IMG/VR virus record: IMGVR_UViG_3300030333_007705
Span: 10,016 to 74,015 of that record
Source: a virus
Strand: one strand, 5' to 3'
Length of the DNA stretch: 64,000 nt
Below, piece by piece: positions 8,725 to 50,018 of this stretch; within the stretch, counting starts at the first letter, position 1; the number at the start of each line of letters is the position of its first letter. A program made the translations under genes and the position numbers. The notes under the pieces were generated by a model. That model searched no databases, had not been told where the DNA came from, and worked only from the letters and a program-made list of their open reading frames with translations.

Positions 8725-8755
8725 GAGGCATCTGCTGGCCATGCCTCCCTGCGCC
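8725..8755 (-). ncRNA. Pseudoknot-like 3'-UTR element, copy 3
   Basis: GGC-GCAGG-GAGGCAT-G-GCC-AGCAG-ATGCCTC, 6 nt after the AAA gene stop; covaries with copies at 49640 and 49987. Confidence 0.6.
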
Positions 8756-8761
8756 TGAGTC

Positions 8762-9832
8762 TTAGGACTCGGTGGACTTCCCGGTCAGGATAGCCACCAG
8801 CTTGCCAGACACCGTTTCACCGTTGTCGGCCTGCGTCTTGTGGAACGAGGTGACGTTCTCCGTGTCACCCTTGCCGAGAGCCTGCCACAGCTTCATCACA
8901 GCCTCAGAGGGCAGGGAGACGAAGTAGTTGGCAAGGTTCTTGCACTGCTCCTCGGTCATCTTCTTGTGGAAGACCTCGGTGGACTCCATCTTCTCAATGA
9001 GAGCGCAGTGCTCGTTGATATTGAAGTCGGAGGTCTTATCGACCTTGCCGTCGTCGAGGATCATCTCGACCGTGACCTGCCGCTCGTAGTTCTTCACGAA
9101 GTCGTTGAAGGACACCGCAGCCTCGAAACCGACGAAGCCAGTGGCGAGGTGGAAGATGGCGGGGTTGTGGTCCTCGACACCGAGCATCCCAGCGGACGCG
9201 AGGCAGTCGTTGAGCCGCTTCCAAGAGCGACGCGAGGGGTAAACCTTGTTGGGCTCATAGTCCTCGTTGTGCTCCAAGTGAGAGCGGTTCTGGTTCACGA
9301 AGTCCCAGACCTCATCAGCCACGTTGCCCTTGGCCCAGGTGAGCCAGTCCTCGGTCGTGGGCTCCACGTCGAAGACGGTCCAGCGGTCAAGCTCGGCAGG
9401 GTCCATCTCGCCCACCTGATACTGCGAGCCATGCTCGCCACCGTTGACGGCAGCGATGATGACAGTATCGGGGTGAAGGTAGTTACCGAAAATCTTGCGA
9501 GAGTCGGTAAGCTCGAAGATGCCCTGGCGCACCTCTGGAATGGCGCGGTCAACCTCATCGAGGAAGAGGAGGACTGCACGCGAGCAGGCGTCAGCCAGCC
9601 AGTCGGGCGGGCAGAAGGACGTAACGTCGCCATCCGTGCGAGGAAGGCCAACGAGGTCGCCCTCAGTCATCTGTGATGCACGTCGTTCGACGACGGGCAG
9701 GCCCATGTCGCCAGCCACCTGATAGACAAGCTCAGACTTGCCTACGCCGTGACGACCACGGAGCATGAGCGGCTTCTTGACCGCGAGGACGTGAGGGGCA
9801 ACAGAAGTAAACGTCTTGAAATCGATAGCCAT
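8762..9832 (-). CDS. MoxR-like AAA+ ATPase, partner of the vWA protein
   Basis: Walker A GRHGVGKS, Walker B LLFLDE, MDPAELDRW, PSRRSW. Confidence 0.9.
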   Translation of the reverse strand: MAIDFKTFTSVAPHVLAVKKPLMLRGRHGVGKSELVYQVAGDMGLPVVERRASQMTEGDLVGLPRTDGDVTSFCPPDWLADACSRAVLLFLDEVDRAIPEVRQGIFELTDSRKIFGNYLHPDTVIIAAVNGGEHGSQYQVGEMDPAELDRWTVFDVEPTTEDWLTWAKGNVADEVWDFVNQNRSHLEHNEDYEPNKVYPSRRSWKRLNDCLASAGMLGVEDHNPAIFHLATGFVGFEAAVSFNDFVKNYERQVTVEMILDDGKVDKTSDFNINEHCALIEKMESTEVFHKKMTEEQCKNLANYFVSLPSEAVMKLWQALGKGDTENVTSFHKTQADNGETVSGKLVAILTGKSTES

Positions 9833-9928
9833 GATAACTCCGTGTCAGGCTAAGAGGGAACATATTTGGTGTCGGGCCTTCCGACATAACTAACGTAGGA
9901 ACCAGATTGTGCTGGTAAACACTTTTTT

Positions 9929-10579
9929 TTACTTTCGCGACTTTTTGAGCCAACGCTCTTGAATCACTAGGGTTTCTCCTGCGCCGATAGGCAGGACAGT
10001 GTAGGACCGCGAACCCTTGGTTGCGTGCAGGACATTCTGCTCGACATCGACGATGAGCACATCCTGGCCGCGAAGGCTCGGACGTAGCGGGCTCTGCATC
10101 GAGTCTCGAATCGTGACCATCGTACCCACCGCATAGAGAGGGCTCGCCGCTGCATTCGCCATCGCTCGTTGGACGTACTTGTTCTCAACCATCTTGCGAT
10201 ACAGCTTTTCGGACGGTATGTAGTTGGAATCATTGATGATTCTGTCCGCCGCATCGCTGAAGTAAGGCGGGTTTGCCTTGTAGTAGTTCGCAGCGAACAC
10301 CGCCTTGGTGCGCTTCTCAGGAGTCCACGACTCATTCCACGACTTGCGTGCGGCCTGGAAGGCCGGGTCGGAGTTCCTCTCGATGCGCTGATAGACCTCA
10401 TGCTGCTTCGCAGTGAGTCGGCCCCACTTCTTGGCAGATTCGAGCAAGGAAGACAGGAAGTTGCGCTCCCAATCCGTCAGCGTCGAGATTCCTTTCGCAG
10501 CCGTCTTCTCAATGCGAGCGACAAGCTCAGGGTTGTTCTGTCGAGGCTGTCGATTGTAGCGTCGTCCGTAGTATCCCAT
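9929..10579 (-). CDS. Hypothetical protein with C-terminal SH3-like domain
   Basis: GGAGACGAC leader; promoter at 10610-10637; C-terminal YAVGTMV... Confidence 0.75.
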   Translation of the reverse strand: MGYYGRRYNRQPRQNNPELVARIEKTAAKGISTLTDWERNFLSSLLESAKKWGRLTAKQHEVYQRIERNSDPAFQAARKSWNESWTPEKRTKAVFAANYYKANPPYFSDAADRIINDSNYIPSEKLYRKMVENKYVQRAMANAAASPLYAVGTMVTIRDSMQSPLRPSLRGQDVLIVDVEQNVLHATKGSRSYTVLPIGAGETLVIQERWLKKSRK

Positions 10580-10638
10580 CGTCGTCTCCATTGTCCGGGG
10601 TACGTGTAAAACATAGGCACGGGTTTCGCTGAGTAAAG

Positions 10639-10767
10639 AAAAAAAGATAACATGGCGTCCAGTCACCACACTGGATCGATGGTTCAGCTAGCATCGTTTT
10701 CCGCCACCCGTATACGCGGGCTTGAACTAAGGGGTCGGTTCAGTATCCGCCACCATGTCATCTTGGT
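10639..10767 (-). ncRNA. Structured small RNA (five-helix junction), unknown family
   Basis: 12-bp closing stem 10646-10657/10751-10762, four internal hairpins, own promoter at 10774-10801, U7 tract after the stem. Confidence 0.7.
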
Positions 10768-10809
10768 ATCTTTAATATAGTTACGAGAAAAAAGTAGTAA
10801 ACACCTTGA

Positions 10810-11019
10810 TCAAAGTTTTTCTAAGTCCTCGACAAACATCGAGTCCCAATCCCATCGATCGTTCCACTGGACCCATACCGACCACAGTGCCCCGTCGCGT
10901 TGGAAACAGGCGGTCGATGCCTCTTCGACCACGATGCCAAGAGCATCAGGGGGAATCTCTCCGTTGTTCCTGTGGACCTCTGGGTCATCCAGAAGTCTAA
11001 CCAAATCACCTACTTGCAT
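10810..11019 (-). CDS. SH3/KOW-like array protein A11
   Basis: MQVGDLV; 14-nt overlap junction. Confidence 0.8.
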   Translation of the reverse strand: MQVGDLVRLLDDPEVHRNNGEIPPDALGIVVEEASTACFQRDGALWSVWVQWNDRWDWDSMFVEDLEKL

Positions 11020-11212
11020 TGACCACCTTCAGAATGTTTGCCGCGTAAAAACCAGCGGGAGTGTATGTATCAACCCACTCGATGTAGGCTGTGGGTTGTC
11101 CGTGTGACGTGGAGCCTGTTTTAAGCACTACGCCAAGATACTTAGAGCCACGACCCAAAGTCTCGGTGGCTGAATAGTGCGACTCAAATGTAACCAAATC
11201 ACCGACTTGCAC
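11006..11212 (-). CDS. SH3/KOW-like array protein A10
   Basis: MQVGDLV...KVVNASR. Confidence 0.8.
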   Translation of the reverse strand: MQVGDLVTFESHYSATETLGRGSKYLGVVLKTGSTSHGQPTAYIEWVDTYTPAGFYAANILKVVNASR

Positions 11213-11381
11213 TGATTATCTCCAACATGCTGTTCACTTCTAGTGTTGGGCCTGGTTCCAGCCGGTCGTCATCAGTTTCGTATGTCCACTGCACCATGCA
11301 GTGTGCGCCTAGACTCTGCACCACTAGACCACAACCCAGCCTGGGAATCTCTTTATGTTTCACTAAGTTACCGACTTTCAC
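11199..11381 (-). CDS. SH3/KOW-like array protein A9
   Basis: MKVGNLV...EIISASR. Confidence 0.8.
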   Translation of the reverse strand: MKVGNLVKHKEIPRLGCGLVVQSLGAHCMVQWTYETDDDRLEPGPTLEVNSMLEIISASR

Positions 11382-11538
11382 TGATGACCCTCAACTGGCT
11401 CTGATACATATCGGCCTCGCCGTTTGGCCACTGGACTGTGGCGCGCTTGTCCAGGCTAGTAGTTCTCAAAATCTTGGCTACGATGCCCACGCCGTCTGTC
11501 TCCCAGCCTTTTTGCACAACCAAGTCACCGACTTGCAC
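11368..11538 (-). CDS. SH3/KOW-like array protein A8
   Basis: GTG start MQVGDLV...RVISESR. Confidence 0.8.
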   Translation of the reverse strand: MQVGDLVVQKGWETDGVGIVAKILRTTSLDKRATVQWPNGEADMYQSQLRVISESR

Positions 11539-11680
11539 TGACGACCTCGCACTGAGATGCAACGAACCAGACCGTGTGTCCGGTGCTGGTGAGTACCCTC
11601 AAGGTGCCGCCAGCGTTTGGCCGAGATAGCACCGTGGCCATCTGTCCATTAAAATATCTAATAATATCACCGACTTTCAA
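11525..11680 (-). CDS. SH3/KOW-like array protein A7 (51 aa, not in ORF track)
   Basis: TTG start MKVGDIIRYFNGQMATVLSRPNAGGTLRVLTSTGHTVWFVASQCEVVSASR. Confidence 0.75.
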   Translation of the reverse strand: MKVGDIIRYFNGQMATVLSRPNAGGTLRVLTSTGHTVWFVASQCEVVSASR

Positions 11681-11871
11681 CTTACCAACTCCAAATCGCC
11701 TTCAAGGTAGCGACCAGTCAGGCGACGGGCGTGGTGAGAGATGACACTGACGTGCCAAACCTTAGTGCCCTGAGCGGCTGAAAGCCACTGCCAAGACATG
11801 AGCATCGCAAGTGTGTTTTGTGGCAAGCCGATTGAGGCTCGCTTGATTCTCACTAGATTACCGGGCTGCAC
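11677..11871 (-). CDS. SH3/KOW-like array protein A6
   Basis: MQPGNLV...LELVS. Confidence 0.8.
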   Translation of the reverse strand: MQPGNLVRIKRASIGLPQNTLAMLMSWQWLSAAQGTKVWHVSVISHHARRLTGRYLEGDLELVS

Positions 11872-12037
11872 TAACTACCTCTGCACATCGCTTGAGTTCT
11901 CTCATGCTCATCCAAGTTGGGTTCTTGAAGTGAACGTCCTGTGTAACTAATATACGAACGTGATTGTAGTCAGTAAACTCTAAAATCAAACCAGTGTAGT
12001 TTGTTTCAGGAAACCTAATCAAATCACCTACTTGCAC
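11858..12037 (-). CDS. SH3/KOW-like array protein A5 (59 aa, not in ORF track)
   Basis: GTG start MQVGDLIRFPETNYTGLIL...EVVSAAR. Confidence 0.75.
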   Translation of the reverse strand: MQVGDLIRFPETNYTGLILEFTDYNHVRILVTQDVHFKNPTWMSMRELKRCAEVVSAAR

Positions 12038-12209
12038 TGATTAACTCCAAAAACGGCATCGCGCAACTTCTAGGCTCACGGTCAGGCATCATGGACCACT
12101 TGACGAGACATCGCCTAGCCTGGGGCGTCACCTCGACAATGAGCCCAACACCATACAACTCCGGTGGGGCCACGGCTGGCCTGATAGTCACCAAGTCACC
12201 GACTTTCAC
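12024..12209 (-). CDS. SH3/KOW-like array protein A4
   Basis: GTG start MKVGDLV...ELISASR. Confidence 0.8.
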   Translation of the reverse strand: MKVGDLVTIRPAVAPPELYGVGLIVEVTPQARRCLVKWSMMPDREPRSCAMPFLELISASR

Positions 12210-12252
12210 TGGCAACCTCCACGCCCCAAGGGGCTGCACAGCGCAGTCTCAC
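12196..12252 (-). pseudogene. Collapsed 18-codon array unit (VRLRCAAPWGVEVASESR*)
   Basis: GTG at the canonical junction position, in frame with a canonical EVASESR* end. Confidence 0.5.
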
Positions 12253-12418
12253 TGATGACTGTCACGTTTTTAGGGTCTGCATGAATATCATGAGGGTGGT
12301 CGAATGGTCTGATTCGCCAGACTGGATAGCGCTTCGAGCCGTCGTCGATGCCGACGATGAGGCCAAACTTTTCACCATACTGCTTTGTCTTTACTTTGAC
12401 TAAGTTACCGACTTTCAC
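12206..12418 (-). CDS. SH3/KOW-like array protein A3
   Basis: MKVGNLV...TVISE plus read-through tail. Confidence 0.8.
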   Translation of the reverse strand: MKVGNLVKVKTKQYGEKFGLIVGIDDGSKRYPVWRIRPFDHPHDIHADPKNVTVISETALCSPLGRGGCQ

Positions 12419-12581
12419 TGATAACCTCCAGTTGGTTCGCGAACCTCGCGGCACGAAAGCCGTTGTCAGGATTAACAGTGACAACCATCGTTTCGAGACT
12501 GTGTTGCACATCCACTACCAAAACAACCGGGTTGGACTCCAGTGTTTTAGATTTATATCTAACCAAGTCACCGGGCTGCAT
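12405..12581 (-). CDS. SH3/KOW-like array protein A2
   Basis: MQPGDLV...EVISESR. Confidence 0.8.
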   Translation of the reverse strand: MQPGDLVRYKSKTLESNPVVLVVDVQHSLETMVVTVNPDNGFRAARFANQLEVISESR

Positions 12582-12792
12582 TGACAACCTCCAACTCGTC
12601 GAGAGCCATAGGATGCAAGCCATCGTGGACTTGCCCAAGGCCGGGAGCATCGCGACCCTCGCCTTCAATACCAGGGTAGTGAACTTGAATCGTCATGTCG
12701 CCATGCGCTGCGAAAATCTTTGCGGCGACGCCAACGCGACCTTTGTAGAAGCGAGCGTAACCAACATACCTTACCAAGTCACCGACTTGCAT
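12568..12792 (-). CDS. SH3/KOW-like array protein A1
   Basis: MQVGDLV...EVVNAAR; SD AGGAG; promoter at 12825-12853. Confidence 0.8.
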   Translation of the reverse strand: MQVGDLVRYVGYARFYKGRVGVAAKIFAAHGDMTIQVHYPGIEGEGRDAPGLGQVHDGLHPMALDELEVVNAAR

Positions 12793-12863
12793 GTCCATCT
12801 CCTGTGTCATCCGTGGACAACTAAAACATAGTCACGCAGTCGGGACTGGTAAAGAAAAAAAGT

Positions 12864-12929
12864 CTACTGCACGATGGCGTAGACGAGACTAGCTAGGCAA
12901 ATCGTGCCATAAGAAACTGCAAGTGTCAT
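12864..12929 (-). CDS. 21-aa hydrophobic peptide
   Basis: SD AGGAG; MTLAVSYGTICLASLVYAIVQ. Confidence 0.35.
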   Translation of the reverse strand: MTLAVSYGTICLASLVYAIVQ

Positions 12930-12961
12930 CCTGTTTCTCCTTTTATTTCAATGAGTTATAG

Positions 12962-13129
12962 TTATGCCTTGAGGATGCGACTGCTGCCACAGGCAGTGCA
13001 GTTGCTCTCGCAGGCGGGGCGAGTGGGCTTGGGCTTGTTGAGGTATTTGCAACCACAAGAGCCACAGTAATAGTTGTAGGGTTCAGGCTTCGGCTTGGGT
13101 GCTGGACAGCACCAATAGCTCATAATCAT
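12962..13129 (-). CDS. Cys-rich zinc-ribbon-like small protein
   Basis: CGSCGC...CTACG; TAATG coupling. Confidence 0.6.
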   Translation of the reverse strand: MIMSYWCCPAPKPKPEPYNYYCGSCGCKYLNKPKPTRPACESNCTACGSSRILKA

Positions 13130-13341
13130 TAGATTACCTCTAGGTGGCTCCTTTGAAACCACCACGGTTTGCCATGTCGTTGTTGTGATGCAGACAACTC
13201 TGGACCAATAGGCTCGACGACACACTCGATGCCTATCGTCTTGACTACTAGCCCGACCCTGCCTGCTGCTTCTGTGTTGGGGTAGTCCTCGCTAATCTTT
13301 ACGAGGTTGCCAACTCTTGGTTTCGGGGGTCGTCCTTCCAT
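13129..13341 (-). CDS. SH3/KOW-like small protein (leaderless)
   Basis: RVGNLV...HLEVI; ATG 6 nt after -10. Confidence 0.75.
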   Translation of the reverse strand: MEGRPPKPRVGNLVKISEDYPNTEAAGRVGLVVKTIGIECVVEPIGPELSASQQRHGKPWWFQRSHLEVI

Positions 13342-13377
13342 GCTGATACCATAGGAACAGATAATGCAGAGTAAACA

Positions 13378-13767
13378 TTAAATCGAAATATGCCTGGAAA
13401 TGTAAATGTTTTCAAAGCCATAGCCGCGTGTTTCGTTGTCATCCATGTCTTCGCCAACGCGAACAAACTTGAAAAGCTCCGCGTAGTTAGGAGCGTTATC
13501 GTCGTCCTTGAGGCCAAACTCCGACAGGTCTTCACACTCCAGGCCCTCGATGAACTTCTCAATCATGGCGATCTCTGGATAGCTGTCATACCACTTGACA
13601 TGCTCCCAATGCATGAGCCAGTTGCCCTTGCCGTCGTAGTCGGTGTCAAGATTGTCAACGTCCCTCGTGCATAGCTTCTGCGTCTCCTCGCACTTGGCGA
13701 AAGCCGTCATCAAGGCTGGCATCAGTTCTGCATGAACTGCCAGTATTACTTCAGATCTGTATCCCAT
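13378..13767 (-). CDS. Phage hypothetical protein (MGYRSEV...KWYDSY...FVRVGED family)
   Basis: 129-aa ORF in operon context. Confidence 0.75.
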   Translation of the reverse strand: MGYRSEVILAVHAELMPALMTAFAKCEETQKLCTRDVDNLDTDYDGKGNWLMHWEHVKWYDSYPEIAMIEKFIEGLECEDLSEFGLKDDDNAPNYAELFKFVRVGEDMDDNETRGYGFENIYISRHISI

Positions 13768-14034
13768 TTACCATGCTCCGTTGTAAGACCAGCAGAAATC
13801 ATTATCCCACTGGCACCATTCTTCATACCATCCATCGACCATCCAGACACAACATGTTGTGCCATCGTCGTACCAGTCGCACCATTCGGGCTCCCAATAA
13901 TATGGATCTTCTGTGCAATAATCAGGCGTGTAATAGACTACCACGCCGCTTGTATTTGGCACCGGCCTAGTCTCAAGCTCGACCGTGCAGCATGACAACA
14001 ATAGGCACAGAGTCGCGAGAGTAAAGTTTTTCAT
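13768..14034 (-). CDS. Putative Cys/Trp-rich lipoprotein
   Basis: MKNFTLATLCLLLSC lipobox-like; SD GGAGGAG; ATGA overlap. Confidence 0.65.
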   Translation of the reverse strand: MKNFTLATLCLLLSCCTVELETRPVPNTSGVVVYYTPDYCTEDPYYWEPEWCDWYDDGTTCCVWMVDGWYEEWCQWDNDFCWSYNGAW

Positions 14035-14294
14035 CGACGCTCCTCCCACAGTCGCCAACCAGCCTTTGTGATGGCGTCTTCACTGTTCCTCTGTTTCTTG
14101 TGAGAGGCAAAGACCTCGCTGCCATCAGGCATACGAATGAGGTACTGTGAGCCTCGGATGTGCTCAACTACGAGCGCACCCTCAAAACCTTTCTGGGTGA
14201 TGAGTGAGCCAACGAGAGCTTGTCGCTCGCGGGCAAACTGTGCCCTATCTTCAGCGGTTAGCCGTCGGTTCCTTGTTCTGTCTCTGCGTCTCAT
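14031..14294 (-). CDS. Hypothetical protein, SH3-like C-terminal half
   Basis: Arg-rich N-terminus; VGSLI...ALVV...YLIR. Confidence 0.65.
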   Translation of the reverse strand: MRRRDRTRNRRLTAEDRAQFARERQALVGSLITQKGFEGALVVEHIRGSQYLIRMPDGSEVFASHKKQRNSEDAITKAGWRLWEERR

Positions 14295-14551
14295 ACTCTC
14301 TTCTCCGGGTAGAATCTATAGACAAGACGCCAGTGCTGGGCGCGTTCCTGCTTGGTAGCCTCATCCCAATAGAGAGACGGGGAGCTGTCATCTTCCCAAA
14401 CAGCCGACGCATACTGAAGTTCATAGTCGCTGTCTTGTCGCTTGAAAATCTGAACTGCGATATTCTCCAGAACCACTTGCCCTGCATCAACTGTATCAGT
14501 AACAAGCGAGCCAAACTTTGGGTGGTTAATATCGGGGTTAAATCGTGTCAT
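14291..14551 (-). CDS. Hypothetical protein
   Basis: Coupled ORF. Confidence 0.6.
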   Translation of the reverse strand: MTRFNPDINHPKFGSLVTDTVDAGQVVLENIAVQIFKRQDSDYELQYASAVWEDDSSPSLYWDEATKQERAQHWRLVYRFYPEKRV

Positions 14552-14720
14552 CGAAGTCGTCCTCTTCGTCGTTCACTGGTACTATAGGAACGCCATCAGG
14601 TAGAGTAAACCTGTCATCATCAGAAAAAACCAAATCGACTTCGCGATCTCCACTAACATCTCGTTTTTGTTCATCTTTTTTACTCCATCGAGTTATGTGG
14701 AACCATTCTTTTTCAGCCAT
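14538..14720 (-). CDS. Acidic hypothetical protein
   Basis: Start MAEKEW overlapping the upstream stop. Confidence 0.55.
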   Translation of the reverse strand: MAEKEWFHITRWSKKDEQKRDVSGDREVDLVFSDDDRFTLPDGVPIVPVNDEEDDFDDTI

Positions 14721-14973
14721 TCGATAGCAACTTGACTTCCCAGCACTGAACCTTGTCCGGGTTGTTTTGTCGCGGACGATATTGTGGCGCCTTGAACCAG
14801 TGAACCCAGAGGTCATAGCGAGCCTGCTTTTTGCCTCCAAGCACCTTGGCGTAATGCTCTTCCAAAACATATTCCTTGTGAAGAACCATGCCAAGTGTGT
14901 GGCACGGCTCAGGCGCATAAGCCTCAGTTACCATCGCACCGGGTTTCAATTGTTTGCAGTCTTTCATATTCAT
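14713..14973 (-). CDS. SH3/KOW-like small protein
   Basis: LKPGAMV...LGMVL...WVHW. Confidence 0.7.
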   Translation of the reverse strand: MNMKDCKQLKPGAMVTEAYAPEPCHTLGMVLHKEYVLEEHYAKVLGGKKQARYDLWVHWFKAPQYRPRQNNPDKVQCWEVKLLSNG

Positions 14974-15155
14974 GGTGCTATGAACTTCTCCTTCTCCTCT
15001 GAAAAGGAATCAGGCAGTGAGACTGTCTCGCCGCGCACTTGCTCCAGCTTGCAACTGTCCTCGATGTCAGCAATCATATTGTCAACGTCTTCAAGTGCGC
15101 GTGTGATCTTGTCTTTGACGCTGCGAAGCTGTTTCAGTTTTTGTTCGTCTGTCAT
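14970..15155 (-). CDS. Small coiled-coil protein
   Basis: GGAGACGAC leader; promoter at 15173-15200. Confidence 0.7.
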   Translation of the reverse strand: MTDEQKLKQLRSVKDKITRALEDVDNMIADIEDSCKLEQVRGETVSLPDSFSEEKEKFIAP

Positions 15156-15203
15156 TGTCGTCTCCTGCGTGTAACATAGGCACGCTCCGTCGCGAGTAAA
15201 AAA

Positions 15204-15386
15204 CTATGCGGGCGACACGACAAAAAAACTTTTCGCCGCTTTCCACTCTTCAGGATCATCTGCCGTCACGATGAACGGACCCTTCGCATGACCTAGACTC
15301 TTTGTCACCTGAACCACCAGCTTTGATGGCAGGATGTTAGCATGGTTTTGATAAGCCTTGCTCATCACCAAGTCTCCAACTTTCAT
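15204..15386 (-). CDS. SH3/KOW-like small protein
   Basis: MKVGDLV. Confidence 0.75.
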   Translation of the reverse strand: MKVGDLVMSKAYQNHANILPSKLVVQVTKSLGHAKGPFIVTADDPEEWKAAKSFFVVSPA

Positions 15387-15646
15387 TTGACTACCTCCAA
15401 GAAGTCACCGTAGTGCGAAAGCGAATCACCGCGCACTGTATTGAGATTAAAGATACCGCCCCAACCATAACCATCCTCTTCTGGTCCTGTGATTACAATC
15501 GCCAACTGACCGTCCAGATTTTCATCAAAGTTGTCATTACCGGGCGGGCGAAGCTCCTTACCGAATCCGCGACGGGGTGGTGCATGTACGAAGCGGACCA
15601 ATGTGCCAGCCGGAATGTCTTTAGGGGAGTTGCGCCAGTTCTTCAT
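15383..15646 (-). CDS. SH3/KOW-like small protein (leaderless)
   Basis: PAGTLV...FLEVVK; ATG 6 nt after -10. Confidence 0.75.
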   Translation of the reverse strand: MKNWRNSPKDIPAGTLVRFVHAPPRRGFGKELRPPGNDNFDENLDGQLAIVITGPEEDGYGWGGIFNLNTVRGDSLSHYGDFLEVVK

Positions 15647-15682
15647 GCTTAAACCGTAGGAACAAAATCTAGCGAGTAAAGA

Positions 15683-15889
15683 CTATTTTACGTGTTTGAG
15701 ATCGCGGCGCACTTGGAACATCGGTTTGTCATGTCCAGACCAATGCACAGTGACATGGGTGCCTGGATGGCGTGGGACACTACTCAAGTTCTCGATGTCT
15801 GTCACCAAGCCTACCGCGCCACGAGCGGCAAAGTTGCACGTCAGCTTCTTGCCGTAAGCAGAAAGCTCAACTAAATCACCGACTTTCAC
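15683..15889 (-). CDS. SH3/KOW-like array protein
   Basis: GTG start MKVGDLV; 14-nt overlap. Confidence 0.78.
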   Translation of the reverse strand: MKVGDLVELSAYGKKLTCNFAARGAVGLVTDIENLSSVPRHPGTHVTVHWSGHDKPMFQVRRDLKHVK

Positions 15890-16064
15890 TGACAAGCTCC
15901 AGTTCCATTTCGTTCCACCAAGTCCTATCTGCTCCCGGCCAATCGACCTCGTAGTAGACTATGCCGTAGTCGTCTTCATACATATCAATGACTATTCCAT
16001 AGCCGTAGTCAACGCCAAGCATCGAAGCATCATTCTTTGGCAGAACAACATCACCGACGTTCAT
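15876..16064 (-). CDS. SH3/KOW-like array protein
   Basis: MNVGDVV...ELVSESR. Confidence 0.78.
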   Translation of the reverse strand: MNVGDVVLPKNDASMLGVDYGYGIVIDMYEDDYGIVYYEVDWPGADRTWWNEMELELVSESR

Positions 16065-16281
16065 TGTCCCCACCAAGATGGATCACCACCTGCTTCGATG
16101 AGTCGTCGAGATCAAAGGCGCTGTGCCAGCCAGACTGCTCTGGGTGCAGAAACCACTTGATGTAATATGGCTCCGGCTGGCTTCCGTGCGCGTTACTGTG
16201 GTCTACCTCAGAGACGATACCAATGTCGCCGTCAAGAATATATAGAACGTGGTCGCCTACTTTGAAGTCTGATTGCATCAT
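16051..16281 (-). CDS. SH3/KOW-like array protein
   Basis: FKVGDHV...IGIV...YIKW. Confidence 0.75.
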   Translation of the reverse strand: MMQSDFKVGDHVLYILDGDIGIVSEVDHSNAHGSQPEPYYIKWFLHPEQSGWHSAFDLDDSSKQVVIHLGGDNERR

Positions 16282-16649
16282 GGGTCCATGAGTTCTGAGA
16301 GGTTGTCTCGCCAACCGATGGCCTCGTCAACGTAGTCTCCATAAGTATCTCGCCACTTGATGCTGCCATCGAAGCACTTGATGTAGACATACTCTGGGCC
16401 TAGATCTTCCATTGAAGGATTCTGGAGTATACATGGATTGATGTAGTCATCCAGGTATTCTGTACCATGAGTCTTGATGATGCGGAAGCCTCCTCGCGGG
16501 GCAGCGAGCAAAATGTGAGTCAACAAAACGTCGTTGTCGATTGCTGCCAATGTCGGGAACATATGGCTAGGGTAGCCATCATAATGACAGTATGTGCCAA
16601 CATATGTCCCAGGCTCAGTCTCAACATAAACATTAGAGCGCGTGCCCAT
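16278..16649 (-). CDS. Phage hypothetical protein (MGTRS...YCHYDGYP family)
   Basis: SD GGAGG; motif YCHYDGYP. Confidence 0.75.
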   Translation of the reverse strand: MGTRSNVYVETEPGTYVGTYCHYDGYPSHMFPTLAAIDNDVLLTHILLAAPRGGFRIIKTHGTEYLDDYINPCILQNPSMEDLGPEYVYIKCFDGSIKWRDTYGDYVDEAIGWRDNLSELMDP

Positions 16650-16650
16650 T

Positions 16651-16944
16651 TTATGCCTCCAAGTAGACGATGCCCGCTGGTAGCTCACCAGACACTACGC
16701 CACCGTGCTTTGCAATCACATCCAACACGGTCTGCGAGGGCACCCAACCATAGACAGTCTCAGTCAGGTTTTCCGGGTTCTCTGCGTACCTCTCCAAGAG
16801 GGGCTCAGGCTTGTTTGGGAAGCCAACCTCGACCTCATCATATGAGGCCGCGTTGTCAGACCTTGGGCTGCAATATGCGTTGCTGTTAGCTTGCACGCTC
16901 ATGCTGAATCCGTCAGCGCACTTGATTCTTTTATTCTTGCTCAT
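16651..16944 (-). CDS. Phage hypothetical protein (CADGFSMSVQA...EVGFP family)
   Basis: 14-nt overlap with the upstream SH3-like gene. Confidence 0.75.
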   Translation of the reverse strand: MSKNKRIKCADGFSMSVQANSNAYCSPRSDNAASYDEVEVGFPNKPEPLLERYAENPENLTETVYGWVPSQTVLDVIAKHGGVVSGELPAGIVYLEA

Positions 16945-17128
16945 CTACAATCTCCAGCCATGCCTTGCTGTTCCATGAATAATCAGGGCAACCCGGCGGT
17001 GGGTTAATCCAATGTACCTTGTAGTCACAACCGTTCATTGGTTGGTTGCGAATGTTCACTTCTACTATAATCCCCAAACCGCTCCGGTCAAGGGCATGTG
17101 TATTATTTACTAAATCACCGACTTTCAT
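16931..17128 (-). CDS. SH3/KOW-like array protein
   Basis: MKVGDLV...LEIV. Confidence 0.78.
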   Translation of the reverse strand: MKVGDLVNNTHALDRSGLGIIVEVNIRNQPMNGCDYKVHWINPPPGCPDYSWNSKAWLEIVDEQE

Positions 17129-17279
17129 GACTCTCCACCGCTGAGTAGTCGCAGTAAATCATGCTTTCCTCTTTGGGGAACTCGACCAACATCGTGCCTT
17201 GGTTCGCATAGAACCTAACAATCTTGCCCGCGCCATATTCCTCTCTGCCTTTCACTATGACGGTATCACCGATTTTCAT
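17115..17279 (-). CDS. SH3/KOW-like array protein (54 aa, not in ORF track)
   Basis: MKIGDTVIVKGREEYGAGKIVRF...SHESR. Confidence 0.75.
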   Translation of the reverse strand: MKIGDTVIVKGREEYGAGKIVRFYANQGTMLVEFPKEESMIYCDYSAVESHESR

Positions 17280-17526
17280 TTATCTTCTCTTCTTTCTGCT
17301 TGCGAGTCAGGCGCTTGAACTTGTTCTCGGCCCGCATGGCCGAGGAACGACTAGGGTGAGGCTCCAGCAAAACAATCCTCGTGGGCCTTCTTCTTCTAGT
17401 GTATTTTGCACCACGTTTGGTGTGGTTGTGTTCGTACAACCTTCTCTCCGTGTTCGTCGTTACACCAGCATAGTAAGAACCATCAGCGCACAGTAAAACA
17501 TAAAACCACCAGAGATCAACTTTCAC
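17266..17526 (-). CDS. GIY-YIG nuclease (UPF0213/YhbQ-like)
   Basis: FYVLLCADGSYYAGVTTNTERRLYEHN...GAKYT...AMRAE. Confidence 0.88.
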   Translation of the reverse strand: MKVDLWWFYVLLCADGSYYAGVTTNTERRLYEHNHTKRGAKYTRRRRPTRIVLLEPHPSRSSAMRAENKFKRLTRKQKEEKINENR

Positions 17527-17728
17527 TTATTATTTCAACGTCTTCAAAGCCAAGATAAACTTGGGTGCCTTCAAAATCCACAGTCACGACCCTGTTGATG
17601 GCCGCTGCGACAACGACACCAATCTTGTCCTCATAGCCAATGCCGCGTCGTGTCTTCCTGCTCGAAAGTCTAACCAGATCACCGGGCTTCGGCTGAGTTG
17701 ACGATTTTGATTTCTGAATATCTCGCAC
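17516..17728 (-). CDS. SH3/KOW-like array protein (canonical start codon mutated)
   Basis: KPGDLV...EIISES; CCG at the expected GTG position 17692. Confidence 0.6.
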   Translation of the reverse strand: MRDIQKSKSSTQPKPGDLVRLSSRKTRRGIGYEDKIGVVVAAAINRVVTVDFEGTQVYLGFEDVEIISES

Positions 17729-17867
17729 TTCTCTTTACCCCGTTTCTCAAATCCAGCAGCCTATACATTTGCTCACCAAAGGGCACTCCTTCTCTCGGCA
17801 GCTTTTCTAGAACAATATAGTAACGCCTTGTCTCATATAAAACAGAAACTAAATCACCCGGCTTCAC
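17679..17867 (-). CDS. SH3/KOW-like array protein
   Basis: GTG start MKPGDLV. Confidence 0.78.
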   Translation of the reverse strand: MKPGDLVSVLYETRRYYIVLEKLPREGVPFGEQMYRLLDLRNGVKRSARYSEIKIVNSAEAR

Positions 17868-18063
17868 TGAGAACCTCGACCCAGCCACTTGTGATAGCGC
17901 TCAGGTCCATTGGCATCGCTTCTCCGTTATTGGAGGGCCACAAGACAAGCTGGGTGCGCGACGGGCTATGAATGAGGGCACGCTCTACTAATGCGCCGAC
18001 GATGATGCCAACGTCACCCTGGTCTACATCACGCACTAAGCTGCCAATCGGAATCGAGGTCAT
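17854..18063 (-). CDS. SH3/KOW-like array protein
   Basis: PIGSLV...EVLSEAG. Confidence 0.75.
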   Translation of the reverse strand: MTSIPIGSLVRDVDQGDVGIIVGALVERALIHSPSRTQLVLWPSNNGEAMPMDLSAITSGWVEVLSEAG

Positions 18064-18235
18064 CGTGTTTCATCTCCTCAAGGCTTGCCTCTGCATAGGT
18101 GCCCTGCGTTCCTGACTCGTCGTCGAGCCATAAAATCCTGTAGTTGTTGTCGCCAAGTGAGCTTGTTACTACACCTAATGTAGACTCCAAAACTTGACCG
18201 TCAATCTTCATGTGAACCAAATCACCAGTAATCAT
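18029..18235 (-). CDS. SH3/KOW-like array protein
   Basis: MITGDLV. Confidence 0.75.
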   Translation of the reverse strand: MITGDLVHMKIDGQVLESTLGVVTSSLGDNNYRILWLDDESGTQGTYAEASLEEMKHDDLDSDWQLSA

Positions 18236-18429
18236 TTTCCCACGTCCTTCGCCATGTTGGCGCTTGAAATATACATGTAGCCGCCCTTGTTGTAGGCTGG
18301 CGCAGTGCATTTTGCCTTGAATAGAATCTGTCTTGTCGCGATGGCGTCACCGCACTCCAAGCAGGTGTTGTAGCCGAGCGCCTTGCGGCGGTCAGAATAC
18401 TCATCGTCACACTTAATACAAATAGCCAC
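18232..18429 (-). CDS. C4 zinc-finger protein (TraR/DksA zinc-finger-like)
   Basis: CIKC...RRKAL...CLEC; GGAGACGAC-GTG leader. Confidence 0.7.
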   Translation of the reverse strand: MAICIKCDDEYSDRRKALGYNTCLECGDAIATRQILFKAKCTAPAYNKGGYMYISSANMAKDVGK

Positions 18430-18448
18430 GTCGTCTCCATTGTAAAGG

Positions 18449-19003
18449 CTAGAAAGTAAGTTGTAGTTGCCGACCCTGCGGGTTGGTCTGTTCTTCCTTA
18501 ACTATAGGCACCGTCATAACAAAGTCAAGCATGTCAATGTGCTTAACTCCTCTTTCGCCTGTGTCGTCTTCATAAGAGACATAGGCTGTACGATCGCCGC
18601 CCCATGCTATGGTCCTTGAGCCGTCTGCGCTTAGGGCCTGAACAACCTCAAAGAGTTCACGCTCATACATCGTGTACATCGTTTCGCCATCGTCGTCTTT
18701 GTGCCAAAACTCTTCTCCTAGCACGGCGAAAAAGTGCTCAGTCAAGTCGCGACCGTCAACCTCTTCTTCCCAATAGCAAGTCTCGCTGTATGCTTCCAGA
18801 TTGCCGTTGTCGGTGTCAACGTAGAACTCAACCCAACCTTCGGGAACAGGTCGGTGCAGTTGACTTGGCTCATGCTTTCGCCAGTAGAGATAAAACCCTT
18901 CGTGGTCATAGCTGAGAAACTTGTCGCAAAAGTGTTCAATAACTTTTTCTGCTATCTCAGGCCCACACTTGGGCTTGAAGCAATAGCTTGCTAAACTTGG
19001 CAT
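18449..19003 (-). CDS. Hypothetical acidic protein
   Basis: GGAGGACGAC-ATG leader; promoter at 19021-19048. Confidence 0.75.
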   Translation of the reverse strand: MPSLASYCFKPKCGPEIAEKVIEHFCDKFLSYDHEGFYLYWRKHEPSQLHRPVPEGWVEFYVDTDNGNLEAYSETCYWEEEVDGRDLTEHFFAVLGEEFWHKDDDGETMYTMYERELFEVVQALSADGSRTIAWGGDRTAYVSYEDDTGERGVKHIDMLDFVMTVPIVKEEQTNPQGRQLQLTF

Positions 19004-19055
19004 GTCGTCCTCCTGCCTAAAGTATAGTTACGTGTGTGTACGAGTAAAATATTTT

Positions 19056-19265
19056 TTACCCAGAAACCTCGAACTCAGTGTCATCTAAGAGTAAAATCCT
19101 ATCACCACACAAGACTCGATAAACATCTCCAGGCCAAAGATCCGCTTCCGATGGGAGTTCCTCGGAATGAAGCCCAACGATGAGTCCGTGGGTACACTTA
19201 CCAAGAGCCAACTCTTCAGGGTCGTGCAGCTTGACTAGGGTGCCGATAGTGAACTTTGCAGCCAT
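19056..19265 (-). CDS. SH3/KOW-like small protein
   Basis: FTIGTLV...FEVSG. Confidence 0.7.
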   Translation of the reverse strand: MAAKFTIGTLVKLHDPEELALGKCTHGLIVGLHSEELPSEADLWPGDVYRVLCGDRILLLDDTEFEVSG

Positions 19266-19474
19266 ATTCCTGAATCTAGTTTATCGTCGCTGAGAATGGT
19301 GTCAACGCTTTCACTTGTTACACTTAGTTTGTCATCTGGCCACACAACAGTGACAGCCAAATACTCGCCTTCCATCGTGCTTGGTCGGTACATAAAAGGC
19401 TCGTCAGATGTTACCAATCCCCATTCAGTTTCGCCGTCCAGATTGACATAGCCGATCAAATCGCCTTTGTTCAT
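19235..19474 (-). CDS. SH3/KOW-like small protein
   Basis: MNKGDLI...WGLV. Confidence 0.7.
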   Translation of the reverse strand: MNKGDLIGYVNLDGETEWGLVTSDEPFMYRPSTMEGEYLAVTVVWPDDKLSVTSESVDTILSDDKLDSGIWLQSSLSAP

Positions 19475-19564
19475 ATTAAAAACCCACCCTATCCCGCCGC
19501 GTTCATTCACGGCCCAACCAGTACCTACACTATAGGGACGACAATCTACAGTGTAAAGGTAGTT

Positions 19565-22599: not shown

Positions 22600-22676
22600 T
22601 GGCACGCCCGACTGGATTCGAACCAGTGACCTACGGCTTAGAAGGCCGTTGCTCTATCCAGCTGAGCTACGGGCGC
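22600..22676 (-). tRNA. tRNA-Arg(UCU)
   Basis: GCGCCCGTAGCTCAGCTGGATAGAGC...CTTCTAA...GGTTCGAATCC...CCA. Confidence 0.95.
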
Positions 22677-22681
22677 TCACC

Positions 22682-23056: not shown

Positions 23057-23228
23057 GCTTAATCCTCCTATGTCATACTAAGACTATAATAACAGTTCAA
23101 GTTAAGTTAAGTCTTTGTTTCAATAAAGCAACTAAAGCACCGCATATAGCACAAGTGCTATAACACCAGTAGCTACGCCAATGAGGGCGCCCTTGAAAAG
23201 TCCATCTCCACTAAATCTATCTGCGTAA

Positions 23229-24158: not shown

Positions 24159-24176
24159 ATTATCCTCGTGTGTGAA

Positions 24177-48465: not shown

Positions 48466-48510
48466 ACACCCTCTAGATAAATATAAGAACCTAGAGGGGA
48501 GTAGAAAGAA

Positions 48511-49620
48511 CTACTCAGAATCAATATTATAGAAATCGCTAGCTTTGCCTTCCTTGTTGTCGAAACGCATGATGATCTCCTCATCCATAATCTGGAGCAC
48601 TCTGGACTTGAATTTTTCATCTTTTAGCTTTTCTTTCCACTTTGCAGCTTGAAACTTGTCAACACTCCCATCTTCATATACAAGGTTATACCAAGCCCCA
48701 GCTTGCTTTAGATTATCCGATCCCTTGATTGCCTCAAGCCAGCTTTCTTCGTCCTGAATGCCAACATCGCCGCCCCACATAATTTTAAATGTGCATTGGC
48801 GACCCTCAGTGCCAAAGCGACTTTTCTTTAAAGTAACTTTAACTTCTGATCCAACTCGGTAACCATTTTCATCAACAATAAAAGACGCCTTGGCCTTCCT
48901 CTTAGTTAGCCAGATACGCAAAGAATAAGCGTAATGCATCGCCTTGCCTCCGGGCGTGACATAGGGAGTGGTCATCGCCTCCGCGACGTTGCTAGTAATG
49001 TTGGTCTTAAGCTGATTCAAAACCAAGAACGTTGATTCAGATGCAGCGATTGGCACGGTCAGCTTTGACATGCCTTTTGCAAGAATTCTTGGCTTAACAG
49101 CCATCGAGGACTGTGGGTTAAAGTCTCCTTCAACGTCGCTAATTGAAGGAGTAAGCGCCAGCGAGTCCCAAATAAACAACATTCTGTTATCGTTTGAGCC
49201 TAGTAGCTCTTCAATTGTCTCCAGCACATATTCAACGCTGGGCGGCTGTAGATATAGGATATTGTCAACGTCGCAGCCTGCGCTGGCTAAAAATTCAGGA
49301 TCAATAGCTGATTCTGAATCAAAGTATACAACGTCAATGCCCAGCTTTTGAGCATTCGCAGCAATTTGTGCTGCCATATAAGACTTACCTGAGCCTTCAA
49401 GTCCAGCGATTTCTACGATCTTTCCGACCGGAACTCCAGCTAGATGGCCCCTGCAGATAACACTATCAAGCCAGCGTGACCCCGTTGAAATCCACTCCTT
49501 GACTTGTGTTGGGTTGTCTTTTGTCAGGTCAAAAGCAACCTCTCTGCCTGATTTTTTGTTAATAAGATCTCGCATTTCGCCAATGCTCAAACGACCTAGT
49601 TTTTTCGCTTTCTTAGCCAC
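48511..49620 (-). CDS. recA: RecA/UvsX recombinase
   Basis: GLEGSGKS, DSE, WDS, LNQ, TPGG; GTG start after SD GGAGG (alternative ATG 49632). Confidence 0.93.
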   Translation of the reverse strand: MAKKAKKLGRLSIGEMRDLINKKSGREVAFDLTKDNPTQVKEWISTGSRWLDSVICRGHLAGVPVGKIVEIAGLEGSGKSYMAAQIAANAQKLGIDVVYFDSESAIDPEFLASAGCDVDNILYLQPPSVEYVLETIEELLGSNDNRMLFIWDSLALTPSISDVEGDFNPQSSMAVKPRILAKGMSKLTVPIAASESTFLVLNQLKTNITSNVAEAMTTPYVTPGGKAMHYAYSLRIWLTKRKAKASFIVDENGYRVGSEVKVTLKKSRFGTEGRQCTFKIMWGGDVGIQDEESWLEAIKGSDNLKQAGAWYNLVYEDGSVDKFQAAKWKEKLKDEKFKSRVLQIMDEEIIMRFDNKEGKASDFYNIDSE

Positions 49621-49639
49621 ACCTTCCTCCATTAAAAAT

Positions 49640-49670
49640 AAGGCACCTGTAACCCGTGCCTTCCTGCGGT
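49640..49670 (-). ncRNA. Pseudoknot-like 3'-UTR element, copy 1
   Basis: ACC-GCAGG-AAGGCAC-G-GGT-TACAG-GTGCCTT followed by ATTTTT. Confidence 0.6.
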
Positions 49671-49682
49671 ACTTACTAAAGT

Positions 49683-49964
49683 CTACTTGGTATTAGTACC
49701 GGTAGAAGGCGTAACAATCACCTCCTCAACAACAACAGGGGTGTTGTCGCTGTTGATAGGACCAGTAGTCTTAGTGCTAGTTGTGTTGGTTGTATTTGTA
49801 GCACTTTCGGTGCCAACGCTAGCGTCCAAACCATTTGAAACTGGGTCCGTATTTGGAGCCGGTGTCGTAGTGGGTTCAGCTACCGTAGTAGTTGTCTCTT
49901 CAGCAAACGGGTTACAACCAACCATCATTGCAAGACATGCCATAGTGGCAAAAATTCTAATCAT
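49683..49964 (-). CDS. Thr-rich lipoprotein
   Basis: Signal peptide with lipobox MVGC; low-complexity T/P/N tail. Confidence 0.75.
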   Translation of the reverse strand: MIRIFATMACLAMMVGCNPFAEETTTTVAEPTTTPAPNTDPVSNGLDASVGTESATNTTNTTSTKTTGPINSDNTPVVVEEVIVTPSTGTNTK

Positions 49965-49986
49965 AGTAAAATCCTTTTTAAAAAAT

Positions 49987-50018
49987 AAGGCACCTGTAAC
50001 CCCGTGCCTTCCTGCGGT
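49987..50018 (-). ncRNA. Pseudoknot-like 3'-UTR element, copy 2
   Basis: Identical to copy 1 apart from one extra G; 5 nt after the SSB stop. Confidence 0.6.

Follow-up and report, generated by a model that had tools for sequence, protein, structure and literature searches.

A short element behind three stop codons

Three genes in the 64,000-nucleotide stretch of viral DNA that we analysed (the window) are each followed, shortly past the stop codon, by a short element, which raises the question of whether these sites encode one and the same RNA structure and of what such a structure may do at the end of a gene. An earlier note on this DNA had reported these three copies and we found each of them where it had placed them (Table 1): copy A begins 5 nt past the stop codon of the SSB gene (TAG, 50026-50024) and ends 22 nt ahead of the ATG (49964) of a small gene that the note took for a lipoprotein; copy B, which has the sequence of copy A minus one G, begins 12 nt past the stop codon of that small gene (TAG, 49685-49683), with ATTTTT and the ribosome-binding site of recA coming next; copy C begins 6 nt past the stop codon of an AAA+ ATPase gene (TAA, 8764-8762), with the next long gene starting about 250 nt downstream. 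As read from its sequence and its relatives, recA likely starts at the GTG at 49620, behind a GGAGG, rather than at the ATG at 49632. We also agree that copy C has no T-run, whereas ATTTTTT and ATTTTT follow copies A and B. Two other genomes (G002 and G004) have the copy C site as well, with 40.8 kb between it and the SSB site. Of the three copies, copy C alone has a promoter-like site (8692-8665) behind it, at a distance of 33 nt.

Structure-aware scans, strict and relaxed (any 7-bp S2 stem, a 3-bp S1 stem and RCRGG as the L1 linker), covered the whole 74,015-bp record, which contains exactly three copies of the element, all on the coding (-) strand. Each scan gave one extra match that we judged spurious: 20054-20086 (+) in the strict scan, with only 6 of 7 stem pairs, and 4571-4626 in the relaxed scan, within a long ORF frame. 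The 12-mer GCAGGRAGGCAY occurs three times, compared to about 0.03 occurrences expected in 128 kb of two-strand sequence. The 7-bp S2 stem includes four or five G-C pairs, the S2 hairpins of copies A and B reach -11.5 and -10.6 kcal/mol, respectively, and the minimum free energies range from -10.6 to -14.6 kcal/mol.

Table 1. Coordinates of the element copies, of their parts and of the neighbouring genes
Feature	Coordinates	Strand	Details
gp32-like single-strand DNA-binding protein (SSB)	50024-50797	-	257 aa; Pfam PF08804, E 3.3e-11
Copy A	49987-50018	-	5'-3': ACC-GCAGG-AAGGCAC-GGGGTTACAG-GTGCCTT; S1a 50018-50016; L1 50015-50011; S2a 50010-50004; loop 50003-49994 (contains S1b); S2b 49993-49987
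T-run ATTTTTT	49980-49986	-	directly 3' of copy A
Accessory gene (lipoprotein of the earlier note)	49683-49964	-	93 aa; flanked by copies A and B; no Pfam family matched
Copy B	49640-49670	-	S1a 49670-49668 ACC; L1 49667-49663; S2a 49662-49656; L2 49655; S1b 49654-49652 GGT; L3 49651-49647 TACAG; S2b 49646-49640
recA-like recombinase	48511-49620	-	Pfam PF00154, E 7e-38
AAA+ (MoxR/AAA_5-like) ATPase	8762-9832	-	precedes copy C; Pfam PF07728
Copy C (GC-type)	8725-8755	-	5'-3': GGC-GCAGG-GAGGCAT-G-GCC-AGCAG-ATGCCTC; S1a 8755-8753; L1 8752-8748; S2a 8747-8741; L2 8740; S1b 8739-8737; L3 8736-8732; S2b 8731-8725

Both stems covary in a large family of relatives

More than 140 distinct instances of the element were examined on contigs of uncultured marine phages. 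In this family, S1 consists of 3 bp formed by the triplet just 5' of L1 with bases 2-4 of the hairpin loop, and S2 is a 7-bp hairpin stem with the consensus NRGGC(A/C)Y; L1 has the consensus RCAGG (variants GCAGG, ACAGG and ACGGG), L2 is a single purine that is the sole base separating S1 and S2, and L3 has 5-7 nt with the consensus end AYAG (observed as ACAG, ATAG or ATCAG). An extra hairpin can sit in L3, and the hairpin loop of 9-11 nt can then reach 33 nt. The linkers GCAGG and CAG, which the earlier note had called invariant, are thus only nearly so, since variants of L1 and of the end of L3 exist.

The same note had deduced covariation of both stems from what amounted to two independent sequences, and this now holds in 78 and 43 distinct relatives. 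In gap-free alignments of these two sets, 99.1% and 94.3% of cells were paired, none of 500 shuffles of either alignment equalled the observed pairing percentage or covariation score, and sliding the partners by 1-3 columns lowered pairing to 20-53%. The proposed 3-bp pairing with the loop thereby withstood a larger alignment: the triplet is complementary to its loop partners in 97-100% of instances and uses all four Watson-Crick pair types, S1 pair 2 being C-G in 103 cases and G-C in 12 with no mismatch, and S1 pair 3 being paired in 107 of 115 cases, compared to 54 +/- 5 in shuffles. S2 covaries at positions 1, 2, 6 and 7. On the SSB tree, the S1 pairing type has switched at least 11 times, including between sister phages (ACC/GGT in the window and CCC/GGG in L139, with 91% SSB identity). 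Since the wobble pairs are 29 G.U and no A.C, the sense RNA is the folded strand. A natural negative control is provided by a scan of cellular genomes, where 16 of 18 pattern matches were read as chance and none of these 16 carries the S1 complement. The compact H-type pseudoknot that had been proposed is thus strongly supported by compensatory changes in both stems, and these sequence comparisons identify the three sites as copies of one conserved pseudoknot of about 31 nt in the sense transcript.

An uncatalogued element restricted to phages

The family had not been recognised in the earlier note, and a search of Rfam 15 returned no catalogued match. At the gathering threshold, only three tRNAs were detected in the window, and a permissive scan of 49600-50060 gave only chance-level matches (E 0.39-8.7); no riboswitch or ribozyme model matched in either scan. 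The element was not found in 50,697 GenBank phage records, and a scan of 185,579 cellular genomes gave only two copies, each on a contig from a metagenome-assembled genome. Its distribution is therefore phage-restricted, and the carriers form a clade of uncultured marine myoviruses of about 180 kb, with 2-3 copies per genome (1-2 pattern matches per 110-193-kb record, three in this record).

Conservation covers the 31 nt and not the flanking intergenic sequence. Within the element, the first base of L1 and L2 change together (G..G in 126 instances, A..A in 13), which suggests a tertiary contact, and the preservation of L1, of the S2 core and of the L3 end beyond what a terminator would need points to a specific partner or a tertiary fold, for which the terminator reading favoured below does not account.

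The pseudoknot stays close to the upstream stop codon

In 121 of 134 instances, S1 begins 5-14 nt past the stop codon, most often 6-9 nt; the minimum is 5 nt and is the same in an independent SSB-anchored sample. The knot stays at the upstream stop even when the next gene is 40-250 nt away (copy C and the 26 cases classed as far). It is found behind the gp32-like SSB gene, the AAA+ ATPase gene and every small gene that has been inserted into the SSB-recA gap. In relatives, the most frequent upstream gene is the SSB gene (at least 55/123) and the most frequent downstream gene is recA (35/120). The gene behind the knot has its own Shine-Dalgarno sequence and start codon.

Ts are enriched across the family at +3 to +7 after the knot. 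Of the 128 CC-type knots, 68 have a T-run behind them (at least 5 T in 8) and 47% have none; the 13 GC-type members, copy C among them, all lack it. The earlier argument that the element is no ordinary terminator was therefore too strong, given the T-runs at copies A and B and in about half of the family; with the structure and the uncatalogued family upheld, the earlier interpretation is supported in part. The sense-strand copies went unreported in a terminator scan that accepted only loops of 3-8 nt, and the assembled contigs that made up the RNA data do not span the element. Considering that the knot has only 2-3 copies per genome and that ordinary terminators occur elsewhere in the window (e.g., 33136-33201), it is not the general terminator of this phage. 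Copies A and B end just 19-22 nt ahead of the next start codon, and since this leaves recA no room for a promoter of its own behind copy B, any termination there would have to be partial or regulated.

Plain hairpins replace the pseudoknot in relatives

Among 64 SSB loci picked regardless of whether they carry the element, 47 had the knot, 16 a plain stable hairpin and one nothing. The substitute hairpins are GC-rich (-20 to -36 kcal/mol), occupy the same slot and come with T-runs in about 5 of 8 hairpin lineages; at least 6 swaps between knot and hairpin were counted on the tree. In 27 of 41 knot-bearing gaps between SSB and recA, there is exactly one knot more than there are inserted ORFs, the largest array having five knots around four ORFs, and the lipoprotein gene is absent from this gap in the nearest relatives, L139 and L149. 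Since near-identical copies bracket single accessory genes, the element probably doubles as a short homology patch for the gain and loss of cassettes.

A candidate terminator and protector of mRNA 3' ends

Since relatives have plain terminator hairpins in place of the knot, we favour a role at the 3' ends of genes and give an even chance to the reading that the element is a pseudoknotted terminator or attenuator and a 3'-end protector that also marks the junctions of gene cassettes, a role that would be close to the exonuclease block listed among the options of the earlier note. According to this model, leaky termination or attenuation would come from the S2 hairpin, which S1 clamps and behind which there is often a U-run, and the knot would also block 3'-to-5' exonucleases. 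Together, termination and protection would shift the balance of output towards the upstream gene (SSB) and away from recA downstream, and the spacing of at least 5 nt would keep the knot folded while a ribosome terminates just upstream.

An operator for a trans-acting protein (the phage SSB or another RNA-binding protein) that controls translation of the gene behind the knot appears unlikely, even if several observations fit it: the loops and the stem core are conserved in sequence beyond structural need, the knot is linked to the gp32-like gene and is phage-restricted, and the tract between it and the next start codon (usually 16-31 nt) is 75% A+U. Against it, none of 120 downstream genes is gp32-like, so that the knot is never upstream of an SSB gene; even where a long gap precedes the next gene, the knot stays with the stop codon in front of it, and it is replaced by unrelated plain hairpins.

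Slightly less probable still, we may be looking at a new minimal class of regulatory RNA (about 31 nt), in which the loops bind a ligand, a phage protein or the terminating ribosome, thereby switching read-through or stability at the gene end and setting the ratio of SSB to recombinase. If so, this switch would be among the smallest natural ones and would have an unusual site of action, behind a stop codon.

A very small ligand-sensing attenuator, in which a metabolite or ion stabilises the knot and S2 and so tunes read-through into recA and other genes, strikes us as quite improbable. Size and topology resemble those of the smallest pseudoknot riboswitches (preQ1-I and guanidine-III), the unpaired bases are highly conserved, the linked change in L1 and L2 suggests a tertiary contact, the fold includes a terminator stem and relatives carry constitutive hairpins in the same slot; however, the adjoining genes (SSB, recA, FKBP, Hc1 and an ATPase) are metabolically incoherent, the knot is placed after a gene and not in a 5' leader, the U-run that a transcriptional switch requires is missing from half of the members, and no Rfam riboswitch model matches.

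We are just as doubtful that the knot acts on the ribosome terminating upstream, either insulating the downstream gene from re-initiation or scanning, or modulating termination. The sharp spacing, never below 5 nt, does resemble that of recoding pseudoknots and would, given the toeprint and helicase positions on the ribosome, put S1 roughly at the edge of the mRNA channel while the stop codon occupies the A site. However, all distances from 5 to 14 nt occur, without any 3-nt periodicity, UAA stops predominate (73/123), the next gene's own initiation signals imply no read-through or frameshift product, and the short distance may simply reflect genome compaction and the need to stay folded.

The odds are poorer again for an RNA processing signal, such as a site recognised by a specific endoribonuclease, or a self-cleaving RNA of minimal size, either of which would split the polycistronic message into gene-sized pieces. 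The presence of a knot at every gene boundary in the SSB-recA gap, its strong sequence conservation and its restriction to phages would suit such a signal, but no known natural self-cleaving ribozyme is as small as this knot of 31 nt and 10 base pairs, Rfam ribozyme models give no match, and the swap for plain hairpins better fits a structural barrier than a specific cleavage site.

Finally, we give next to no credit to ordinary terminator hairpins or a DNA repeat alike by chance or shared descent, even though copies A and B resemble a hairpin with a T-run and the single-copy RNAfold z-scores (-1.9 to +0.5) are unremarkable. Against this reading stand the compensatory changes that both stems show, which involve several pair types and at least 11 independent switches, the G.U-only wobbles, the chance cellular matches without S1 pairing and the conservation of the 31 nt but not of their intergenic flanks.

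Comparison with known systems

Like intrinsic terminators and intercistronic mRNA-stabilising hairpins, the element is a GC-containing hairpin just past a stop codon, often with a U-run; it fills the slot of the plain terminator hairpins of relatives and, like intercistronic hairpins, lies between a high-demand and a lower-demand gene. Unlike in these, the 5' flank base-pairs with the loop, the sequence of loop and linkers is conserved, the loop has 9-11 nt or more instead of 3-8 nt, half of the knots lack a U-run and copies are few in a ~180-kb genome.

Small H-type pseudoknot riboswitches (guanidine-III and preQ1-I) have a similar size (31-41 nt), and guanidine-III has the same order of elements, with a 5' strand, a conserved linker and a 7-bp hairpin whose loop pairs to the 5' strand. 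The conserved bases nevertheless differ, Rfam gives no match, and our knot is not in the 5' leaders of functionally coherent genes. Stimulatory recoding pseudoknots lie 5-9 nt behind the recoding site, comparable to the 5-14 nt (mode 6-9) found here, but no conserved extended or shifted frame continues past the site.

PeSLs (promoter-early stem-loops; Arbiol et al. 2010, PMC2839356) are mobile regulatory cassettes of T4-type phages. They are also repeated, conserved intergenic elements with a terminator-like stem-loop, and knots likewise bracket single small accessory genes and mark sites of gain and loss in a variable region. A PeSL is however defined by a hairpin and a strong sigma-70-like early promoter, for which copies A and B leave no room, whereas the knot is defined by a covarying RNA pseudoknot, has no promoter, is far shorter and is present in few copies per genome instead of many.

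In the T4 gene 32 operator, cooperative binding of gp32 is nucleated by a pseudoknot and extends along an A+U-rich leader, the ribosome-binding site included (PMC3014915). Our knot differs from the T4, T2 and RB69 operators in that it lies 3' of the SSB gene and not in its 5' leader, is also found behind unrelated genes and has other stem and loop sequences; what it shares with them is the compact H-type pseudoknot fold with two short stems (here 3 + 7 bp), the link with a gp32-type SSB gene in a large myovirus, and an A+U-rich tract between the knot and a ribosome-binding site downstream.

Three copies of the pseudoknot and their surroundings

The minus strand carries all long ORFs of the window, and the three copies of the knot, an H-type RNA pseudoknot of about 31 nt, are sense on that same strand. 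Each combines a 3-bp stem (S1, a 5' triplet paired with loop bases 2-4) and a 7-bp hairpin stem (S2, strands S2a and S2b) with the linkers L1 (RCAGG), L2 (a single purine) and L3 (the end of the loop). Copy A starts 5 nt past the stop codon of a gp32-like SSB gene (Pfam PF08804), copy B starts 12 nt past that of a 93-aa gene without family and copy C 6 nt past that of an AAA_5 ATPase gene. ATTTTTT directly follows copy A and ATTTTT follows copy B, each before the next ribosome-binding site, while no T-run is found 3' of copy C. The record thus confirms what the earlier note had described, including the coordinates of the copies, their placement after stop codons and the missing U tract of copy C. 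Structure-aware scans of the whole 74,015-bp record returned the three copies plus one extra match per scan, and these extra matches were judged spurious.

The most likely recA start is a GTG behind GGAGG, giving M-A-K-K as in relatives; an upstream ATG is probably not the start, as it lies 7 nt past the knot and has no Shine-Dalgarno sequence. It is also unlikely that the Shine-Dalgarno-like GGAGG within L1/S2a acts as a start signal, considering that no more than about half of the members have an ATG after it, at a distance of only 1 nt.

Features of the window and of related loci
Feature	Location	Strand	Description
Copy A	window 50018-49987	-	ACC-GCAGG-AAGGCAC-GGGGTTACAG-GTGCCTT
Copy B	window 49670-49640	-	as copy A minus one G
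Copy C	window 8755-8725	-	GGC-GCAGG-GAGGCAT-G-GCC-AGCAG-ATGCCTC
Extra scan matches	window 20054-20086; window 4571-4626		judged spurious
Most likely recA start	window 49620	-	GTG
Improbable recA start	window 49632		ATG
Ordinary hairpins behind other genes	window 33136-33201; 26421-26510; 48466-48510	-	first one: A-run/hairpin/T-run terminator
Hairpin behind recA			CCCTCTAG...CTAGAGGG
Candidate small RNA or leader	window 8476-8724	-	sigma-70-like promoter at 8692-8665
Counterpart in a relative	L076:10966-11215		almost identical
Region that looks like early genes	window 10000-20000	-	many small ORFs
tRNA genes	window 22600-24349	-	Arg-TCT, Met-CAT, Leu-TAA
Knots with L3 hairpin insert	L205:3281-3345; L217:2897-2961; L218:3158-3222; L016; L022; L089		for example GAAAAG...CTTTTC
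Knot with variant S1	L203:3866-3900		CTC/GAG
Knots with variant L1	L151; L216		ACGGG
Terriglobia MAG repeat	L121, L122, L127, L129, L130, L132, L134-L137		unrelated to the phage knot

Comparative evidence for the pseudoknot fold

IMG/VR was scanned with an exact pattern that left the bases 5' of GCAGG and their partners unconstrained, and at least 120 loci were found. In every one of the matches listed, the triplet preceding GCAGG can pair with loop bases 2-4, the pairings being ACC/GGT, CCC/GGG, TCC/GGA, GCC/GGC, GGC/GCC, CGC/GCG and AGC/GCT. When pairs were counted in a fixed register with zero alignment freedom among the matches listed, S1 pair 1 was always C-G, pair 2 was C-G in 103 and G-C in 12 with no mismatch, and pair 3 was formed in 107 of 115, compared to 54 +/- 5 in shuffles. 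On two gap-free alignments, 99.1% (n=78) and 94.3% (n=43) of the cells were paired, neither this pairing nor the covariation score was matched by any of 500 shuffles, and sliding the partners along the alignment brought pairing down to 20-53%. A fourth S1 pair, formed in 18 of 43, was unsupported. S2, analyzed in a search freed of the pattern, covaries at positions 1, 2, 6 (where A-U becomes C-G) and 7 and shows G.U at its fourth position. Compensatory changes therefore bear out the covariation of both stems proposed in the earlier note, and that of the 3-bp pairing holds in the larger alignments.

To the worry that these sequences are simply related, the SSB tree provides an answer: the S1 type switches at least 11 times on a tree of 64 SSB proteins, sister phages included, and the ACC/GGT of the window becomes CCC/GGG in a relative (L139) whose SSB is 91% identical. 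The 96 distinct elements contain 29 G.U pairs and no A.C pair, indicating that the sense strand is the one that folds, as RNA. L1 base 1 and L2 also change together (G..G 126, A..A 13, A..G 2). In single-sequence folding energy the copies do not stand out from shuffles; the case for structure is made by comparison rather than by thermodynamics, and on that basis the element is real and statistically secure and its fold is established.

Variants were also seen: one sub-lineage carries an extra hairpin of about 20 nt in L3 while keeping S1, S2 and a terminal AATAG, which again points to a genuine fold, the middle S1 pair can also be U-A, and L1 can deviate from its consensus (see table).

The knot belongs to the end of the upstream gene

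Position rules were derived from 141 unique instances. Among the matches listed, S1 lies 5-14 nt from the end of the stop codon in 121 of 134 cases (mode 6-9, never less than 5), S2 is usually 16-31 nt from the next start codon, 79% have an A immediately 3' of S2, and T makes up 50-72% at each of positions +3 to +7. The upstream gene in these matches encodes a gp32-like SSB in at least 55 of 123 cases, other examples being FKBP, Hc1, AAA_5 and cold-shock protein genes, and a wider range of genes lies downstream (RecA in 35 of 120, with FKBP, Hc1, helicases, methylases, Clp and others after it). For 26 of the listed instances, several of them at a locus end, the next gene was more than 35 nt away or not found; whenever the upstream ORF of such an instance could be scored, the knot was 6-18 nt past its stop codon in 19 of 21 cases. 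The knot thus stays near the upstream stop codon when the next gene is far, which ties it to the end of the upstream gene.

Plain hairpins can take its place

Eighty SSB loci were fetched by protein similarity alone, leaving 64 non-redundant loci. Behind the SSB stop codon, 47 of these had a knot, 16 a plain stable GC-rich hairpin and one had nothing. The replacement hairpins have folding energies of -20 to -36 kcal/mol, with T-runs in about five of eight lineages, and knots and hairpins were swapped at least six times on the SSB tree. This interchange argues most strongly that the knot stands in for a gene-end hairpin, terminating transcription, protecting the RNA end or doing both. A T-run (at least 5 T in 8) follows 68 of 128 knots of the CC-type S1 class but none of the 13 of the GC-type class, to which copy C belongs.

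Ordinary hairpins were also found behind other genes of the window, recA included. Considering these ordinary terminators, general termination in this phage does not depend on the knot; the knot is a special, gene-specific device.

Knots as probable cassette junctions

The SSB-recA gap holds 0-4 ORFs. In 27 of 41 loci with knots, the knots outnumber the ORFs by one, with a maximum of five knots for four ORFs (L203). In the window, the 93-aa gene is flanked by the near-identical copies A and B, while in the nearest relatives (L139 and L149) a knot is directly followed by recA. Local duplication was rejected as a general rule, the S1 type being shared within a locus in 32 of 84 pairs, compared to 25.4 +/- 4 by chance. 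The knots of one locus are often of different types, which suggests that each cassette brings along a knot of its own.

Distribution of the element

The family had gone unrecognized in the earlier note, and a search of Rfam at gathering and permissive thresholds likewise gave no family match; the element is not catalogued as an RNA family. Using blastn, no copy of the element was found in 50,697 GenBank phage records. These records also hold no near relative of the SSB-recA region DNA. The best SSB protein match is 35% identical, and there is no close cultured phage. A pattern scan of 185,579 cellular genomes gave 18 matches, but only two of these are genuine copies, and both lie on MAG contigs (L123 and L131); the other 16 lack the S1 complement and arise by chance or from coding repeats. 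In one Terriglobia MAG, a longer repeat present in ten identical copies, without S1 pairing, is apparently a multicopy coding element that happens to fit the pattern. No description of the motif was found in the literature: in the accessible part of a survey of 10,006 viral candidate RNAs, structures are discussed upstream of gp32, not downstream (PMC10690425), and a preprint (10.64898/2026.09.22.753630) was not relevant to the motif.

The window comes from a marine metagenome and encodes a tail sheath, a baseplate protein, DNA polymerase, ribonucleotide reductase, GroEL, a DnaB-type helicase, SSB and RecA. A complete 180,711-bp record with terminal repeats (G002) has an SSB-type site and, 40.8 kb from it, an ATPase-type site, an arrangement shared with the window, which is therefore part of a myovirus of about 180 kb. 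Each large record contains no more than one or two matches to the pattern. One metatranscriptome among public sequencing runs had 5% of words present, and assembled metatranscriptome contigs span parts of the relatives' SSB and recA genes but not the knots, so that they are silent on RNA ends.

Other features of the window

The 250-nt gap between copy C and a DUF2201/VWA gene is almost identical in a relative (L076), while the flanking coding DNA differs. The gap contains a sigma-70-like promoter and about 135 nt that close with a long-range stem and a T-run, and may encode a small RNA or a leader; its folding z-score is about 0 and it has no Rfam match. The region that looks like early genes, besides its many small ORFs, has an excess of sigma-70-like promoter matches (31 over window 1-20000 versus 14.3 +/- 3.4 expected), several being of the form TTTACT-N16-TATAGT/TATATT.

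A proposed function

We give about an even chance to a model in which the knot acts as a gene-end terminator or protector and as a cassette junction. S1 would form first on the emerging RNA and would then keep S2a near S2b, so that the long-loop 7-bp stem could close fast and stack on S1. Together with a U-run, the knot may cause partial termination; with or without one, it may be a compact block to 3' exonucleases. A structure 5 nt from a ribosome on a stop codon need not be unwound, and the 5-nt lower limit may correspond to the distance where the knot escapes such unwinding. L1, the S2 core and the end of L3 are more strongly conserved than a terminator or protector accounts for, which leaves room for action through a specific partner, be it protein-, ligand- or ribosome-linked.

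This work adds a well-supported RNA structure family to marine phages lacking both a cultured member and a matching Rfam model; comparison of sequences was enough to establish its fold. At 31 nt, the knot is easy to synthesize, probe and crystallize, and binding of a partner by its conserved loops would make it a minimal regulatory RNA of a new kind. It also joins three questions usually studied apart: by what means a phage balances plentiful and scarce replication proteins encoded on one transcript, why a compact structure serves well as a gene-end signal beside a terminating ribosome, and what part short conserved elements play in steering the turnover of accessory genes.

Among phages, the T4 gene 32 operator (PMC3014915) comes closest as an earlier example of an SSB-linked pseudoknot, but that operator lies 5' of its gene, whereas the knot is never 5' of an SSB gene among the matches listed (120 downstream genes). 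Its cassette-junction pattern is reminiscent of PeSL-mediated shuffling in T4-type phages (PMC2839356), although, unlike PeSLs, the knot has no promoter and few copies per genome.
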